Shown one piece after another: positions 35,238 through 42,167 of a DNA stretch of 64,000 bases. Numbering within the stretch: position 1 is the first letter of the stretch; each line of letters begins with the position of its first letter. The stretch is taken from assembly GCA_020349965.1 (NCBI GenBank), contig CP070705.1, forward strand, positions 689,092-753,091, read 5' to 3'. A model generated the notes under the pieces. That model worked only from the letters and a program-made list of their open reading frames with translations, made no database searches and was not told the DNA's origin. A program made the translations under genes and the position numbers. This DNA is from a candidate division WOR-3 bacterium (GTDB taxonomy: Bacteria > Hydrothermota > Tepidihabitantia > SM23-42).

Positions 35238-35795
35238 GTGGATGATTTATCATTGCATGTCCTCGATATCATTGAAAATGCGGTTACAGCAGGCGCCACG
35301 AATGTTGAGGTCCGGATCACTGACGACGAAAGGCAAAATCTCTTTATGATCGAGATCGCAGACAACGGCAGGGGCATGGACAAAGAAACGTTGAAAAAGG
35401 CAATCGATCCCTTTTACACGACAAAAACCGTCCGCAAGGTAGGACTGGGTCTTTCTATGCTGGCTCAAGCCGCAAAAGAAGCCGGGGGCAAATTCGGGGT
35501 ACAATCACAACCGGGCAGAGGTACCAAGATTCATGCACATTTCCTACACGACCATATTGACCGGAAGCCGTTAGGCGATATGGCCGAGACGATCGCAGCT
35601 TTCATCGCAGGCAACGGCGAGAAAGTAGATCTTACTTATCATCACCGTAAGGGTGATCAGGAGTTTTTCTTTTGCACCACAGAAATAAAAAAGGTGCTCG
35701 AAGAAATCACAATTTGCCACCCCGAGGTCATTTCCTTTATCAAAAGAGAAATCCGGGATGGTTTGAAATCAATTTCCAAAAGGAGCAAAATATGA
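35238..35795 (+). CDS. Stand-alone HATPase_c (kinase-like) protein
   Basis: LDIIENA, DNGRGM, DPFYTT, GLGL, DRKPLGD. Confidence 0.85.
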   Translation: MDDLSLHVLDIIENAVTAGATNVEVRITDDERQNLFMIEIADNGRGMDKETLKKAIDPFYTTKTVRKVGLGLSMLAQAAKEAGGKFGVQSQPGRGTKIHAHFLHDHIDRKPLGDMAETIAAFIAGNGEKVDLTYHHRKGDQEFFFCTTEIKKVLEEITICHPEVISFIKREIRDGLKSISKRSKI

Positions 35796-36175
35796 AGAAA
35801 TTAAAGATCGGTGACCTTGCCAAGATACGCGACAAGGTGAGAAAAACTGCGGTACTGCGGCAAGGCAAAGCAAGGGCAAAGATAACAGTCCATATGGGAA
35901 CCTGCGGCATTGCGGCCGGCGCTCGTGACATACTTTCCGGCCTGCTCGAGGATATCAAGTCAAAGAAACTAAACGACGTCATCGTAACCACCTCAGGCTG
36001 TGCTGGGCTCTGTAGTAGGGAGCCTATGGCAACAGTCGAGATCACCGGAAAACCTCCGGTCAAATACGTTGATCTGACAACTGAAAAAATGAAAAAAATC
36101 CTCAGCCAGCACGTAATCAAGGGTACTATAGTCAACGAATACGCTCTTGCCATCGGCAGCGAAAGGACACATTGA
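35792..36175 (+). CDS. Thioredoxin-like [2Fe-2S] ferredoxin (HndB/HydD-like)
   Basis: HMGTCGIAAGA, SGCAGLCSREP; AAGGAG SD. Confidence 0.85.
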   Translation: MKKLKIGDLAKIRDKVRKTAVLRQGKARAKITVHMGTCGIAAGARDILSGLLEDIKSKKLNDVIVTTSGCAGLCSREPMATVEITGKPPVKYVDLTTEKMKKILSQHVIKGTIVNEYALAIGSERTH

Positions 36176-36223
36176 CGCCGAACGCTAGACGCCATATGCA
36201 TAGAGCGTCACGCGTTGTGCGTA
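36174..36223. repeat. Inverted 7-mer repeat element, empty form
   Basis: 3x RACGCNN, palindrome TATGCATA, 3x NNGCGTH. Confidence 0.75.
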
Positions 36224-36239
36224 GATCAAGGAGGTTAGT

Positions 36240-39200
36240 TTGAAAGACTTTCGAATGCACTTGCTCGTGTGTGCGGGAACAGGTTGTGTTGCGGCAGGAT
36301 CTTTTGATATCAAGAAGGCACTCGAAAAAGAGATCATCAAGAAAAAACTGCAGAACGAAGTGACGGTCATTGCGACCGGCTGTAATGGATTCTGCGAAAG
36401 AGGGCCCATCGTGGTCGTTCAGCCCGACGGCGTGTTCTATCAACGGTTGAAGACGGATGACATACCTCACCTCGTCGAAGAACACCTGCTTAAAGGGCGG
36501 CCCGTCAAGGACCTGATGTATGTTCCTCCGGCCGAAGCAAAACCAGTGCCGAGGATGATGGACATCAGATTTTTCAAACACCAGCGACTAATCGTGCTTA
36601 AGAACCGCGGACGCATCGATCCAGAAAATATCGACGAATATATCGCATTTGACGGATACCGCGCACTTGAAAAGGCACTGACCGACATGAAACCGGATGA
36701 CATCATCCGTGAAGTCAAGGCATCGGGACTCAGAGGTCGCGGTGGCGCCGGCTTTCCGACCGGCTTGAAGTGGGAATTATGCGGGAAGGTACAGAACGGC
36801 CCGAAGTATGTAGTCTGCAATGCTGATGAGGGCGACCCCGGTGCATTTATGGATCGCAGCATCCTCGAAGCGGACCCCCATGCCGTCCTTGAAGGAATGA
36901 TTCTCGGCGCGAGGGCGATCGGTGCTGGAAAAGGTTTCATCTATGTTCGCACCGAATATCCGCTCGCCCTGCAGAGAATAAAGATCGCAATCGAACAAGC
37001 CGAGAAATACGGCTTGCTTGGCAAGAACATACTCGACTCCGGATTCGACTTCTCGATTGAGGTCAAACGTGGTGCCGGTGCATTCGTCTCCGGCGAAGAA
37101 ACGTCATTATTGGCGGCGATCGAAGGCAAGATTGGCATTCCCAAGCAACGTCCCCCCTACCCGGTGCAGAAAGGACTGTGGAAGAGACCGACCAATATCA
37201 ACAACGTCGAGACGTGGGCAAACGTGCCCCATATCATACTTCGCGGCGCACACTGGTACTCTGAGATAGGAACCGAAGGCAGCAAAGGAACGAAAATTTT
37301 CTCCCTCGTCGGGAAAATAAACAACACCGGACTCGTTGAAGTACCCATGGGCATTACCATGAAAGATATCATATACGAAATCGGCGGCGGCATCCCCGGC
37401 AATAAGCAGATAAAAGCTGTTCAGACCGGGGGTCCATCAGGCGGCTGTATACCCAAGCAAATGCTCGATCTGCCAATCGACTATGAAAGCCTTAAAGGAG
37501 CAGGATCCATGATGGGGAGCGGCGGAATGATCGTCATGGATGAAGATACCTGTATGGTCGATGTTGCAAAATATTTCATGAATTTTCTACGAGACGAATC
37601 ATGCGGCAAATGCCTGTCGTGCCGTGAGGGTACGCAAAGAATATGGGAAATCCTTGACCGTATAACAAAAGGGAAAGGCAAACCGGACGACATCTCCCTG
37701 CTCAGAGAGTTGGCCACCGCAACAAAGGACGCATCGATGTGCGGCCTCGGACAGACTGCTGCAAATCCGGTAATGAGCACGCTCAACTATTTTGCCGATG
37801 AGTACGAAGCACATATCAAGTACAAGAAGTGCTCTGCCGCCGTGTGCAAGCAGATAATCTCTTCACCATGCCAGCATACATGTCCGATCGCCACCGAAGC
37901 CCCCCAGTACATCGCATACCTCGCACATGGCGAGTTCGAAAAAGCATACGAAATCATCTTGAAGGATAACCCGCTACTCAATGTCTGCGCGCGCGTCTGC
38001 CACCACCCGTGTGAGATCAAGTGCCGCGCCGGTCAGGGCGGAAGACCGATTGCCATCCGTGCACTCAAACGCGCTGCCATCGAGTACAGCAATGGCAGGA
38101 AACGTAAGAAACCACGGATTGCGACCGGTCCGAAAGTCGCAATCATAGGTTCAGGACCGTCAGGACTCATGGCTGGGTTCGCGCTTGCCCAAGAAGGTTG
38201 TGCGCCGACGATCTTCGAAGCCCTACCCGTCGCCGGCGGCATGCTCGCAGTCGGCATACCGGCATATCGTCTACCGAGAAAGGCACTCGAAGAGGACATC
38301 AAACGCGTGATCAATGCCGGCGTCGAGATAAAAACGAACCAGAAACTGGGTAGAGACTTCACTCTTGAACGACTTAGAGACCAGGGTTACAAGGCAGTGT
38401 ACATAAGCATCGGCGCGCATAGGAGCATCAAGCTCGGCATCCCCAATGAGGAATCCACTGGTGTGATACCAGCAATGCACTTTCTGACACAGGTCAGCCT
38501 TGGCAAGAAGGTCGTCGTTGGTCAGAGGGTCGGAGTGATCGGCGGGGGCAACTCTGCGGTCGACGCCGCCCGGGTGGCGAACCGCCTGCGCAATGTCCAA
38601 AAAGTCACCATCATATACCGAAGAACAAGAAATGAAATGCCTGCGTATGCCGAGGAGATCGAATGCGCACTCGAAGAAGGTATAGACATCCTGTTTCTGA
38701 CCGCACCGACCGAAGTTATCACCAGAGACGGTTGCATAACCGGGGTCAGGTGCATGAAGATGCAGCTCGGGTCCGTCGAGAAAGATGGCAGGCGGCGGCC
38801 GATTCCGATCAAAGGTTCTGAATTCGTCATCGAACTCGATACACTCATCTCGGCAATCAGCGAACAGCCGGACATCTCTTTTCTCCCAGAAAAACACGAC
38901 TTTAATATTACCGGATGGAATACTTTTGAGGTCGACCGAGAATCACTTGCGACGAACGTGCCGGGGGTATTCGCCGGTGGTGACGCGATACGCGGGCCCA
39001 GTTCGGTCATAGAAGCAATGGCCGACGGCAAACGAGTGGCTGCTGCAATCAGCAGATATCTAAAAAATGAGCCCTTCGAGTACGAATATGAAGTCACCAG
39101 GCCCTCTGTTTATGTCGACCCCGTGAAATTGACGGTCGAAGAGACTCTCGAAAGTACCCGTCAGGAAACGAAGAAGCTAAAATCGGCAGTCCGCCGCAAG

Positions 39201-39311
39201 AGTAATGATGAGGTCGATCTCGGACTGAGTAAGAGTGCCGCAATCAAAGAAGCAAAACGCTGTTTAAGATGCGATCTGGAAGTCAAAGAGGAAGATGAAA
39301 AGGAGCAATAA
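36240..39311 (+). CDS. NuoF/HydB-like NAD(H)-FMN subunit fused to a GltD/NfnB-like FAD-NAD(P)H domain
   Basis: VCAGTGC/GCNGFC [2Fe-2S]; GRGGAGFPTG, NADEGDPGAFMDR, GGPSG, CGKCLSC..CGLG; then PCQHTCP..CARVCHHPCEIKC, GSGPSG, GGGNSA, YRRT, GGDAIRGP, CLRC. Confidence 0.93.
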   Translation: MKDFRMHLLVCAGTGCVAAGSFDIKKALEKEIIKKKLQNEVTVIATGCNGFCERGPIVVVQPDGVFYQRLKTDDIPHLVEEHLLKGRPVKDLMYVPPAEAKPVPRMMDIRFFKHQRLIVLKNRGRIDPENIDEYIAFDGYRALEKALTDMKPDDIIREVKASGLRGRGGAGFPTGLKWELCGKVQNGPKYVVCNADEGDPGAFMDRSILEADPHAVLEGMILGARAIGAGKGFIYVRTEYPLALQRIKIAIEQAEKYGLLGKNILDSGFDFSIEVKRGAGAFVSGEETSLLAAIEGKIGIPKQRPPYPVQKGLWKRPTNINNVETWANVPHIILRGAHWYSEIGTEGSKGTKIFSLVGKINNTGLVEVPMGITMKDIIYEIGGGIPGNKQIKAVQTGGPSGGCIPKQMLDLPIDYESLKGAGSMMGSGGMIVMDEDTCMVDVAKYFMNFLRDESCGKCLSCREGTQRIWEILDRITKGKGKPDDISLLRELATATKDASMCGLGQTAANPVMSTLNYFADEYEAHIKYKKCSAAVCKQIISSPCQHTCPIATEAPQYIAYLAHGEFEKAYEIILKDNPLLNVCARVCHHPCEIKCRAGQGGRPIAIRALKRAAIEYSNGRKRKKPRIATGPKVAIIGSGPSGLMAGFALAQEGCAPTIFEALPVAGGMLAVGIPAYRLPRKALEEDIKRVINAGVEIKTNQKLGRDFTLERLRDQGYKAVYISIGAHRSIKLGIPNEESTGVIPAMHFLTQVSLGKKVVVGQRVGVIGGGNSAVDAARVANRLRNVQKVTIIYRRTRNEMPAYAEEIECALEEGIDILFLTAPTEVITRDGCITGVRCMKMQLGSVEKDGRRRPIPIKGSEFVIELDTLISAISEQPDISFLPEKHDFNITGWNTFEVDRESLATNVPGVFAGGDAIRGPSSVIEAMADGKRVAAAISRYLKNEPFEYEYEVTRPSVYVDPVKLTVEETLESTRQETKKLKSAVRRKSNDEVDLGLSKSAAIKEAKRCLRCDLEVKEEDEKEQ

Positions 39312-40051
39312 TGGTAAGTCTTATTTTAAACGGACTTGAAGTTCAGGCCGAAGAAGGTTCAACGGTCCTCGAAACGTGCAGGTTCTACGGAATTGAGATA
39401 CCTACACTCTGCTACAACGAAGGGCTCCAGCCGTACGGGGGGTGCCGCCTCTGTTTGGTTGAGATCGGAACCGGAGATAATAGCAAACTGGTCAGCTCAT
39501 GTACGTATCCGGTCGAAGAAGGGCTGAACGTTCGTACCAATACCAAACGAGTCGTCAGTGCACGCAAGATGATGATCGAACTACTCGTTTCGGTATGCCC
39601 GCAGTCAAAGACCATCCAGGATCTGGCATCGAAATACCACGTTACGCAAGTGCGTTTTCCGGCTCGTAATGACGACTGTATCCTGTGTGGTCTTTGTGTA
39701 AGGATGTGCAAGGAACAGATGCAATCCGGTGCAATCGGCTTCACCGAACGCGGATTCAAGAAGAAGATCGTCACGCCATTCAACGCCAGGTCAGAGCAGT
39801 GCCGTTTGTGCGGCGGCTGTATCTACGTCTGCCCTGCTTGCCAGATGAGATGCCAAGGTCCGGATGCTCCAACCGACCTTTGCAGCGGGTGCCTATCACT
39901 GGAGCCTTCCTGCATTCAGACGCATGACGACTACCAGTGCTGGATGGGCACAACTGGCGACTGCGGGACCTGTGAAGGACGGCCGGATCAAAGGACGCGA
40001 GACGCAAAACGCTCGACGCCCAACGCAAAAAATAATGCATCGAGTAAATGA
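39311..40051 (+). CDS. NuoG/HydA N-terminal-like FeS protein without catalytic domain
   Basis: PTLC..GGCRLC..SC [2Fe-2S]; CILCGLCVRMC and CRLCGGCIYVCP; 8 further C-terminal Cys. Confidence 0.85.
   Translation: MVSLILNGLEVQAEEGSTVLETCRFYGIEIPTLCYNEGLQPYGGCRLCLVEIGTGDNSKLVSSCTYPVEEGLNVRTNTKRVVSARKMMIELLVSVCPQSKTIQDLASKYHVTQVRFPARNDDCILCGLCVRMCKEQMQSGAIGFTERGFKKKIVTPFNARSEQCRLCGGCIYVCPACQMRCQGPDAPTDLCSGCLSLEPSCIQTHDDYQCWMGTTGDCGTCEGRPDQRTRDAKRSTPNAKNNASSK
39994..40028 (+). repeat. Tandem 7-mer array (left arm)
   Basis: GACGCGA GACGCAA AACGCTC GACGCCC AACGCAA. Confidence 0.8.
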
Positions 40052-40072
40052 ATGCATCAAAAGGGCCAAATC

Positions 40073-40483
40073 ATGTATTCTTTTGAGAAATTAGAAATAT
40101 GGCAGCTATCATTGGATCTTGCAGAGAAGATATGTCAGATGTCTACGGAATTACCTGATGACGGAAAATTCGGATTAATAAGCAAACTTAAGAGAGCATC
40201 GGTGTCTATAACTCTCAATATTGCAGAAGGAAGAGGGTCTGACAGCGATGCAGAGTTCAGGAGATTTCTGGGAATTGCCCTCAAATCATTGATTGAGGTT
40301 GTCGCCTGTCTGAAAATCTGTGAGAGGCTGCAATCCCTTGACCAAACGATTGTATCAGATACATGTGCATTTTGTGATAAGATTGAAGCAAAGATTCGAA
40401 AATTTAGAAACGCGCTCAGTGCCGGACGAAACACACACAAAGCAAAACGCGTTAGGCGTAAGGCGTCGAGCGTAAAGCGTTAA
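40073..40483 (+). CDS. Four-helix-bundle protein (23S rRNA IVS / TIGR02436-like family)
   Basis: FEKLEIWQ, KFGLISKLKRASVSITLNIAEG, FRRFLGIALKSLIEV. Confidence 0.9.
   Translation: MYSFEKLEIWQLSLDLAEKICQMSTELPDDGKFGLISKLKRASVSITLNIAEGRGSDSDAEFRRFLGIALKSLIEVVACLKICERLQSLDQTIVSDTCAFCDKIEAKIRKFRNALSAGRNTHKAKRVRRKASSVKR
40447..40481 (+). repeat. Tandem 7-mer array (right arm, inverted relative to left)
   Basis: ACGCGTT AGGCGTA AGGCGTC GAGCGTA AAGCGTT. Confidence 0.8.
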
Positions 40484-40499
40484 GTCGAAAGGAGAAAAA

Positions 40500-42083
40500 A
40501 TGCCCTCATTATCAAGAATGAATGCCTCTGCGGCAACATTAACAAAGAATAGAACAGAAGATTCGATCGTACCATTGAGTGGAATGTGCGTTACCTGTGT
40601 TGATGGGTGTATCGGCATGTGTGAGATCGGCAAGTCGGCGTACCGCGGCCATGAGGTGATCTACCCACAGCCCTTCGGCATCCTGACTGCGGCATCTGAA
40701 AAGAACTATCCGGTGGATTATTCTCACTTCAATATCATGGGCACGGCAGTAGGCGCCATTGGAGTCGATGCCGATCCAGACAAAGCGATATTCCCGAACG
40801 TCATGATCGAGCAGAAGATCGGCGCGAACAGCGATATCAAGCTTAAGTTCCCAATGGTCGTCCCGGGACTAGGGTCGACGAATGTCGCCAAGAATAACTG
40901 GGAAGGATTGGCGATCGGTACCGCATTATCAGGAGCCATGTTGACGATCGGTGAGAACGTCGTTGCAATGGACATGAAGAGTGAGATCAAGGGCGGCAAG
41001 ATACTCAGAGCACCGGATCTTGAACATCGCGTGAAATTGTATAAAGACTGGCAGCAGGACGGGTACGGCATGATCATCGTTCAAGCCAATGTCGAGGATA
41101 CCCGTCTGGGTGTACAGGAATTCGCCATTCAGAAATTGGGTGTTGAGACGGTCGAGTTGAAATGGGGACAGGGTGCAAAAGACATCGGCGGCGAAGTGAA
41201 GGTCAAAGACCTCAAGAAAGCACAGGAACTTCGGAAGCGTGGATATGTCGTGCTTCCCGATCCATTAGATCCTGATGTTATCGAAGCCTTTGAGCACAAA
41301 ACATTTACCGAGTTCGAAAGGCATTCCAGGATAGGAATGGTTGACGAAGAATCCTTCATGAAGCGGGTTGAAGAACTGCGCAACGCAGGCGCCAAGCATG
41401 TATTCCTGAAGACCGGCGCTTATCGACCTGCAGATCTGGCACGAGCGGTCAAGTACTCATCAAGAGCAAAGATCGATCTACTCACAATTGACGGTGCAGG
41501 CGGCGGAACGGGCATGAGTCCGTGGCATATGATGAACGAATGGGGTATGCCTCCGGTTGAGATCCATTCCCTGGCATTCTGCTACACCGACAAGCTAGCC
41601 AAGAAAGGCGAATATGTTCCCTCGCTGGCATTTGCCGGCGGCATCGCCTTTGAAGACCAGATCTTCAAGGCGCTTGCCTTAGGAGCTCCTTACACGAAGA
41701 TCGTCGGAATGGCCAGGGGCCCTCTGTGTGCAGCAATGGTCGGAAAGACCATCGGCAAGAAGATCGATGAAGGTGAAATACCGGTGTTCGTCGAGCGTTT
41801 CGGAAACAAGAAAGAGGAAATCTTCGTTACTGCGTCAAAGCTTAAGAAGGAATTGGGTAAGGATTTCGACAGAGTGCCACCAGGTGCACTGGGCGTCTAC
41901 ACCTACGTGGAGAGAATGGCACAAGGGTTGAAACAGCTGATGACCGGTAACCGGAAGTTCGCGTTGAAATACATCACGCGAGATGACATCGCCTCGCTCA
42001 CCAAAGATGCAGCGAATATATCCGGGATTCCTTATGTTATGGACGTGGATAAAGACGAGGTCGAGAAAATACTGAATGGATAA
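40500..42083 (+). CDS. Stand-alone FMN-binding glutamate-synthase-family protein
   Basis: ELKWGQGAK, TIDGAGGGTGMSP, AGGIAFEDQIFKALALGA match the GltS FMN barrel; N-terminal CVTCVDGCIGMC; AAGGAG SD. Confidence 0.85.
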   Translation: MPSLSRMNASAATLTKNRTEDSIVPLSGMCVTCVDGCIGMCEIGKSAYRGHEVIYPQPFGILTAASEKNYPVDYSHFNIMGTAVGAIGVDADPDKAIFPNVMIEQKIGANSDIKLKFPMVVPGLGSTNVAKNNWEGLAIGTALSGAMLTIGENVVAMDMKSEIKGGKILRAPDLEHRVKLYKDWQQDGYGMIIVQANVEDTRLGVQEFAIQKLGVETVELKWGQGAKDIGGEVKVKDLKKAQELRKRGYVVLPDPLDPDVIEAFEHKTFTEFERHSRIGMVDEESFMKRVEELRNAGAKHVFLKTGAYRPADLARAVKYSSRAKIDLLTIDGAGGGTGMSPWHMMNEWGMPPVEIHSLAFCYTDKLAKKGEYVPSLAFAGGIAFEDQIFKALALGAPYTKIVGMARGPLCAAMVGKTIGKKIDEGEIPVFVERFGNKKEEIFVTASKLKKELGKDFDRVPPGALGVYTYVERMAQGLKQLMTGNRKFALKYITRDDIASLTKDAANISGIPYVMDVDKDEVEKILNG

Positions 42084-42094
42084 CTTGCACCGTT

Positions 42095-42167
42095 GACGGA
42101 TGACGGATATCAAATAACAGATATCTAATATCTATCGTCAGTCGTCAGTCGTCCGTTATCCAGTATC
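42095..42167. repeat. 7-mer repeat hairpin between convergent genes (possible terminator)
   Basis: GACGGAT x2, GATATC twice, then TATCGTC AGTCGTC AGTCGTC CGTTATC CAGTATC. Confidence 0.6.

Follow-up and report, generated by a model that had tools for sequence, protein, structure and literature searches.

Open reading frame (ORF)-bearing intervening sequences (IVSs) of 23S ribosomal RNA (rRNA) were reportedly described in Leptospira by Ralph and McClelland in 1993, and to our knowledge the origin of such sequences has been open since that year. We also know of no function, outside diversity-generating retroelements (DGRs), for PF05635, a very large protein family with solved structures since 2006. 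Here we examine a gene of this family that sits between two protein-coding genes of an operon and not inside a 23S rRNA helix. It was found in a 64,000-nucleotide stretch of DNA (the window; GenBank contig CP070705.1, positions 689,092 to 753,091) from the closed, 2.30 Mb genome of a candidate division WOR-3 bacterium. The gene is bracketed by inverted arrays of heptamer repeats, with which it forms an insert that we call the cassette.

The nearest published object is the helix-45 IVS of Coxiella burnetii, wherein an S23p (PF05635) ORF lies inside a 28-bp stem with three GACAGAT heptamers. That IVS is cut by RNase III in vitro and is suspected to be a former mobile element (PMC4990558). The 23S rRNA IVS and the WOR-3 cassette share a PF05635 gene as sole cargo, terminal inverted repeats, and tandem heptamers beside the ORF. 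Neither holds a mobility gene, and for both mobility has only been suspected. In contrast, the host site is an operon junction in mRNA for the WOR-3 cassette and an rRNA helix for the IVS. The WOR-3 arms are degenerate word arrays that form an interrupted helix instead of a stem like that of Coxiella, and their mismatches give no sign of selection at the RNA level.

A prediction made earlier from the letters of the window described a transposase-free mobile cassette whose arms pair in RNA, letting it loop or be processed out of mRNA like an IVS. The first part of this description agrees with our results, because the 490-bp insert is filled by one ORF of 136 amino acids and leaves no room for a transposase. 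The RNA-pairing part was not borne out. We hold with moderate confidence that the insert is a promoterless, single-gene PF05635 cassette with its own inverted five-unit ACGC arrays, which is moved through a word-reading protein acting on DNA together with recombination between arrays.

The gene, its arms, and the host operon

The cassette lies between the 2Fe-2S/4Fe-4S gene and the GltS-FMN gene and thereby separates the last two cistrons of the operon. The features of the locus, in window coordinates, are as follows.

35672-42083: host operon, Bfu-like and of glutamate-synthase type, comprising NuoE-like, NuoF-GltD fusion, 2Fe-2S/4Fe-4S subunit, and GltS-FMN genes
39311..40051, + strand: upstream host gene, 2Fe-2S/4Fe-4S subunit (Pfam Fer2_4 and Fer4_7)
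39994..40028, + strand: left arm, five RACGCNN heptamers (GACGCGA, GACGCAA, AACGCTC, GACGCCC, AACGCAA)
40009..40020, + strand: ACGCTCGACGCC, perfect 12-nt partner of 40462-40473
40029..40072, + strand: A-rich spacer with AAAGGG (40060-40065), resembling a ribosome-binding site (RBS), before the cassette gene
40073..40483, + strand: type A four-helix-bundle gene, 136 amino acids, PF05635/TIGR02436 (Pfam, TIGR02436, AlphaFold, and substitution rates)
40447..40481, + strand: right arm, five NNGCGTH heptamers, overlapping the end of the cassette gene
40487..40494, + strand: GAAAGGAG, RBS of the downstream host gene
40500..42083, + strand: downstream host gene, GltS-FMN-like protein (Pfam Glu_synthase)
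42094..42155, + strand: gene-less heptamer hairpin with GATGACN/NGTCATC-type arrays, directly after GltS-FMN, the last gene of the operon

The two predicted five-unit arrays are present exactly, with ACGC cores beginning at 39995, 40002, 40009, 40016, and 40023 and GCGT cores beginning at 40449, 40456, 40463, 40470, and 40477. The perfect inverted pair spans 12 nt, wherein GGCGTCGAGCGT (40462-40473) is the exact inverted match of ACGCTCGACGCC, and an inverted-repeat search of the locus returned arms of 25 nt with 80% complementarity. Both arrays are translated as C-terminal tails, as had been proposed. The final 19 codons of the upstream gene (~39992-40051) come from the left array plus cassette spacer, so that its product ends ...CEGRPDQ-RTRDAKRSTPNAKNNASSK, whereas insert-free orthologues terminate ...CEGRPDQ(I/Q)KKK. 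The right array lies within the four-helix-bundle ORF, which has its stop at 40481-40483 and the tail ...KRVRRKASSVKR*. The cargo is also more AT-rich, as expected, with a G+C fraction of 0.38-0.44 in the insert versus 0.50-0.60 in the flanks.

The likely start codon of the cassette gene is at 40073 (MYSFEKLEIW), with AAAGGG seven bases upstream. Relatives are alike and show AAGGAG, often clearly, or GGAG at this position; on the RBS position and these relatives, 40073 replaced an earlier choice of 40052. The RBS of the downstream host gene, GAAAGGAG, begins five bases past the right arm and three past the cassette stop, and it is kept in filled and empty sites. No promoter- or terminator-like sites were found above shuffle expectation in or beside the insert, and no target-site duplication was seen at the borders GATCAA|AGGACGC and GCGTTAAGTC|GAAAGGAG. 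The cassette thus lacks the transposase and the target-site duplication by which insertion sequences and miniature inverted-repeat transposable elements are recognized, and no mobility enzyme for it was found.

The encoded protein is a member of the 23S-IVS/Avd-like family, in agreement with the original assignment. It scores 100 bits with PF05635 (cut-off 33.8; E 1.1e-28) and 95 bits with TIGR02436, "four helix bundle protein" (cut-off 24; E 2.7e-27). The AlphaFold model (predicted local distance difference test score 88) has helices at residues 8-24, 35-54, 59-85, and 91-131; the basic tail from about residue 117, encoded by the right array, is of low confidence in this model. A sequence search of the PDB matched 2gsc (E 6e-14), and by template modeling (TM) score the model superposes on Xcc0516 (2GSC) at 0.92 and on BT_0352 (2RLD) at 0.84-0.88. 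The crystal entries 2GSC, 2RLD, and 4DWL each contain five chains (A-E).

Homology of Avd to the PF05635 family has been stated, and Avd itself is known to bind nucleic acids as one partner of a mobile or templated system (PMC10053308). The WOR-3 model shares its four-helix bundle with bAvd (4DWL, with its five chains) and with Avd of the DGR ribonucleoprotein (8UB7) at TM 0.82-0.88, although sequence identity is 7-8%. The window bacterium's genome encodes five four-helix-bundle genes, all co-oriented with their neighbours and each with different flanking repeats. A reverse transcriptase (RVT_1) was found neither in this closed genome nor in the other 10 genomes of the genus. Therefore, the five genes are not DGR Avd genes, and a DGR/Avd reading was ruled out. 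Likewise, a defence-system reading was set aside, as PADLOC gave no match for the gene or its neighbours. No rRNA (Rfam) was found in the 3.3 kb around the window copy or around the other four copies.

The junction is a site of cassette turnover

The junction was retrieved from 30 related genomes, and 27 of these kept both flanking genes, representing 11 GTDB genera in three families (G and L numbers below are our handles for genomes and loci). The gene is not fixed at this site. Type A, the cassette of the window, is present in its own genome, G004, and G010. Four genomes and one truncated remnant carry type B, whose arms are built on ACGAAGCCCGTTTCG/CGAAACGGGCATCGT; seven genomes and one remnant carry type C, with GATAACN/NGTTATC heptamers; one genome carries type D, with AAATYCN/NGRATTT arms; and ten have an empty junction with a gap of 34-109 nt. 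Protein identity is 17-34% between types versus 60-90% within a type. With the GltS-FMN-like gene as host marker, at least 15 state changes are required on a tree of 33 tips (the 27 genomes plus six metagenome contigs), the deep backbone of which is poorly resolved. Three cassette types occur within the own genus of the window bacterium, to which the genome CP070795.1 also belongs.

Cassette borders are sharp. All sequence lying between the ...RPDQ codons and GAAAGGAG differs, and the bases just outside track the host tree and not the cassette type. The sister genomes G040 (type D) and G037 (type B) have flanks 94% identical, which equals the regional background, and no recombination tract was seen around the swap between them. 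Two type B loci (L010 and L008) retain a type C left array upstream, which indicates stepwise replacement. Divergence in situ of one ancestral gene was rejected on the identities between and within types and on the occurrence of different types in these sisters. The six genomes closed as single contigs have the states A, A, A, B-remnant, C, and empty, and binning artefacts therefore cannot account for the pattern. The gap is thus a site of turnover, which in one relative or another is occupied by any of four unrelated but similarly designed cassettes, by a remnant, or by nothing.

Type A could also be followed beyond these genomes. Six metagenome contigs (five distinct sequences; L110-L115) carry type A genes (64-74% identical) at the same junction with ACGC/GCGT arrays, and they add four places on the host tree, where their neighbours are a C remnant, a C locus, and an empty site or, for L110, C-bearing members of the own genus. 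A metagenome-assembled genome (MAG) of Candidatus Edwardsbacteria carries a type A gene 67-72% identical, again with ACGC/GCGT arrays, between the genes for the large subunit of methylmalonyl-CoA mutase and its B12-binding subunit. A four-way alignment of type A loci at the DNA level shows similarity from the first GACGC to the last GCGT. In a tree of type A genes, the branch leading to Edwardsbacteria does not exceed those inside WOR-3 in length, which indicates transfer between phyla. The gene with its ACGC arms is thus seen again in five other WOR-3 lineages and in another phylum, and the two are inherited and transferred as a single unit.

Both the protein and the 4-nt words are under purifying selection. 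The ratio of nonsynonymous to synonymous substitution rates (dN/dS) of the cassette gene is about 0.1, with dS ranging from 0.8 up to saturated. In 8 of 8 two-armed type A loci the ACGC/GCGT words recur exactly every 7 nt, mostly five per arm; the 3-nt spacers vary, and the ACGC cores are invariant even though synonymous sites are saturated. At L019, which has lost the gene and is sister of the filled L113, the tail encoded by the left array is kept and the words of that array have decayed.

The sequences also point to a route of loss, and perhaps of gain. The locus L111 has the order [ACGC x6][GCGT x5]-RBS-gene-[GCGT x5]-RBS-host gene, so that direct copies of the right array, sharing an identical 14-nt GCGTAAAGCGTAAT, stand on both sides of its gene. 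L025, which belongs to another genus, can be aligned with L111 on the left and on the right; it is missing exactly the gene and one array copy, and retains a gene-less ACGC/GCGT hairpin. The Edwardsbacteria locus is in the direct-repeat form as well, and the type C remnant L016 is in the mirror form. Judging from these alignments, recombination between direct array copies can remove the gene and leave a gene-less hairpin.

A different account is that types A-D are long-lived alleles moved only by homologous recombination in the flanks, with the arrays serving as operator or autoregulatory sites. This view draws on several features of the same data. Within WOR-3, types A and C are nearly confined to this junction (8-9 of 9 and 10 of 12, respectively), their divergence roughly follows host divergence, inside the genus the type A tree agrees for the most part with the host tree, and the upstream gene shows a mosaic identity profile between G040 and G037. 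Junction-bound types with host-like divergence resemble old alleles exchanged among relatives more than free transposition. Nevertheless, the gene-plus-arms unit occurs in a different operon of another phylum, the sequence adjacent to the junction tracks the host tree, and the identity of the flanks in the D/B sister pair does not depart from background. In addition, the direct-repeat forms and the hairpin footprint reflect gain or loss at the level of the element, and the family is found at hundreds of different junctions. We consider old allelic polymorphism quite unlikely as the explanation.

Conserved words versus RNA pairing

The main alternative mechanism is an RNA-level IVS, in which the arms pair in the polycistronic mRNA and the cassette is cut by RNase III or looped out, with the host message still working as it does with 23S rRNA IVSs. 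Folding gives this reading some substance. The minimum free energy fold of the whole cassette pairs the arms across 430 nt (z = -2.5), and the arm-arm duplex is predicted at -41.9 kcal/mol versus -17.0 +/- 3.6 kcal/mol for shuffles. The genome encodes RNase III, the Coxiella IVS offers a precedent with a gene of the same family, heptamers, and cleavage in vitro, and the cassette is always co-oriented with its host operon.

The details of the helix argue otherwise. It is composed of 5+12+4 bp, an interrupted 21 bp with 3x3 and 2x2 internal loops. Between the arms of the eight type A loci, 4-6 of 12-18 spacer positions pair, where chance with wobble is about 37%. A test of arm mismatches on the sense strand, which depends on 57 informative sites, gave no excess of G·U over A·C (28 versus 29; 57 loci), and the mismatches additionally include 53 of transversion type. 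It is the sequence of the words that is conserved, beyond their ability to pair, and they do not covary. Conservation of words only, the lack of a G·U excess, and the lack of covariation argue against selection that maintains a continuous RNA helix. Furthermore, the upstream ORF is translated through the entire left arm, which would melt the stem. We therefore regard RNA looping or cleavage as somewhat unlikely to be what the arms are for.

Read as RNA, the arms are different words (ACGC and GCGU), whereas as DNA they are one word on opposite strands. By analogy, the latter arrangement is the geometry of protein-binding terminal inverted repeats such as transposon ends. We favour reading of the words on DNA by the encoded pentamer, plus recombination between arrays, over RNA looping or processing. 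In this proposal, read-through from the host operon would transcribe the cassette gene and its own RBS would drive translation. The product would be a pentamer like Xcc0516, BT_0352, and Avd, and would bind the five-unit arrays with one word per subunit. Binding together with host recombination, or with replication slippage between arrays, would move cassettes in and out, and gene-less hairpins would serve as landing pads or footprints. A stem may still form in the transcribed RNA and be open to RNase III cleavage, without being the feature under selection.

Arrays and family members at other sites

The association of arrays with the gene family is not restricted to this junction, and members in the own genome and in other phyla carry inverted repeat arms. 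With the gene not fixed at its junction and arms present at other copies, the condition set to refute the original prediction does not hold. In a set of 99 non-redundant family loci drawn from genomes and metagenomes, the two flanks share an exact inverted repeat of at least 12 nt in 41, compared with 3 of 152 shifted controls, and an exact direct repeat of at least 12 nt in 10 (2 of 152 controls). Under a stricter periodicity test, inverted-core heptamer arrays were found on both sides in 14 of 49 cross-phylum relatives, and any array in 9 of 362 control windows. These counts were used instead of RNAduplex on windows of 110-135 nt, which is a noisy and GC-dependent detector of arms; a unit-matching classifier for direct-repeat forms was over-strict and was dropped.

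Heptamer arrays are also widespread by themselves. The own genome has 80 strict four-unit arrays at period 7 versus 16 at period 6 and 3 at period 8, in a few word families, namely ACGC, GCAYRGN, GATRCNN, and AAATTCG. Three of the five four-helix-bundle genes have arms from the three commonest of these word families. Of the 31 genomes in the taxonomic family of the host, 26 contain ACGC x4 arrays; of the 30 outside it, only G050 does (three hits). Heptamer repeats between co-directional genes have been described before (short tandemly repeated repetitive [STRR] sequences; GGGNATC of Xanthomonas and Nostoc), with no associated gene named (PMC4692102). The abundance of arrays, together with this report, could suggest that they are generic, slippage-prone repeats of intergenic regions and surface-protein genes, and that the gene lies between two of them by chance. 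Against this stand the enrichments over controls given above, the movement of arms with the gene between phyla, the possession by each cassette type of its own arm word, and the decay of the array after gene loss at L019. Coincidence is thus very improbable.

Several results weigh against movement by a word-reading protein, in addition to the junction-bound distribution of types A and C. No recombinase or nuclease was found associated with the cassette, and the majority of the genomes compared are MAGs (the six closed ones apart). Thirty-seven of the 80 arrays lie within open frames of at least 150 amino acids unrelated to four-helix-bundle genes. Most genomes with ACGC x4 arrays are without type A, and GATRRC arrays are common in genomes without type C and do not track that type. 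The proposition that protein type predicts the genome-wide array family was accordingly not supported for either pair. Arrays that are common without the cognate gene do not need that gene today, and a strict link of one protein to one word is not supported. Arrays across the genome might represent footprints or landing pads, or else a feature independent of cassettes.

Some solo arrays have distinctive surroundings. The hairpin at 42094-42155 reads TGACGGATGACGGAT...ATCGTCAGTCGTCAGTCGTC, and several relatives have GATRRC arrays at the same place. In the own genome, palindromes resembling repetitive extragenic palindromes (REPs), CTGTCATTGCGAGGA...CGAAGCAATCTC, adjoin solo ACGC arrays (C1:1027480, 1031000, 1278100, 2084400, and 2087620). 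Array pairs also occur in C-terminal sorting domains like those of the type IX secretion system (C1:342894-343021, 596985-597106, 1769109-1769214, and 1875763-1875882), one array on each side of a conserved IYDxxGRLV motif and translated in frame. Slippage by a single unit would put the sorting domain out of frame, and these arrays may therefore be a case of phase variation.

Other copies of the gene occupy varied sites. The third copy of the own genome (C1:1383573-1384037) comes after tRNA-Sec, and the fourth is followed (C1:264560-264640) by 11-nt repeats (CCGCCCTCTCT/CCGCCCTCTTT) rather than heptamers and then by a masked stretch of N. A clade that shares about 41% identity with type A and has GGCNNAT arrays lies between two tRNA genes (L039-L045; genera g1 and g3, family f3). 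An Hdr/Mvh-like operon carries a four-helix-bundle gene at two consecutive junctions (L098 1380-3000 and L099 1400-3030; G031 and G035); the two copies show vertical inheritance at 87% and 68% identity, and the MvhD-like protein has an N-terminal extension that is translated from a GACTATC array. Array-bearing genes adjoin cas2-like genes at L102 1488-2749 (G041) and L107 3579-4334 (G032), and in G041 the gene and its ATAGCGG array are duplicated in tandem. These copies agree with a 2013 note of PF05635 genes inside cas operons, in which repeats are not mentioned (PMC3936711). Full-text searching of the literature found no paper tying heptamer arrays to the PF05635 family in operons.

Beyond the IVSs and Avd, three kinds of system invite comparison. 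Like the cassettes of integrons (an ORF plus attC), the WOR-3 units are promoterless, co-oriented, and single-ORF with an imperfect inverted-repeat site; alternative cassettes occur at one site in related genomes, and excision leaves the site intact. Unlike them, the WOR-3 repeat consists of heptamer words and is divided between the two sides of the ORF, and the cassettes stand singly inside housekeeping operons rather than in arrays downstream of attI. No integrase turned up at the WOR-3 cassette, although no search aimed at integrases was made. REP/RAYT (REPIN) and heptamer repeats are likewise genome-wide families of short repeats, often in hairpin pairs and enriched between co-directional genes, and REP/RAYT systems include one protein-coding gene flanked by the repeat on which its product may act; the WOR-3 protein, in contrast, is a small helical bundle without a nuclease motif.

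HutP (UAG every 7 nt) and TRAP (GAG/UAG x11) are ring-shaped readers of periodic words on RNA leaders that control termination. As a working analogy only, they use one short word per subunit of an oligomer, as five words at 7-nt spacing would be read by a presumed pentamer in WOR-3. Their folds are unrelated to PF05635, for which binding is only presumed.

The insert belongs to a widespread and apparently undescribed variant of the IVS kind, which resides in the gaps of operons. A broader proposal, which we consider unlikely at present, is that PF05635 pentamers and five-unit heptamer arrays constitute a bacteria-wide cassette system without a recombinase of its own. The word would be read on DNA at both inverted arms, and entry and exit would occur at gene-less hairpins by array-to-array recombination, perhaps by a Campbell-type route via the direct-repeat form, as in L111 and L049. 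The 23S rRNA IVSs and much unexplained heptamer DNA would then be landing pads or footprints.

The value of the locus lies in a series of filled, empty, swapped, and footprint states at one alignable junction across 11 genera, and in a cassette common to two phyla with clear selection on a 4-nt word at 7-nt spacing and a concrete route of loss. For annotation, it illustrates that host genes acquire array-encoded tails or N-terminal extensions and that inserts split operons. The locus also makes both the mobility of the cassette and the target of its protein testable at the bench with defined substrates, namely ACGC x5 arrays and the direct-repeat versus the hairpin form.

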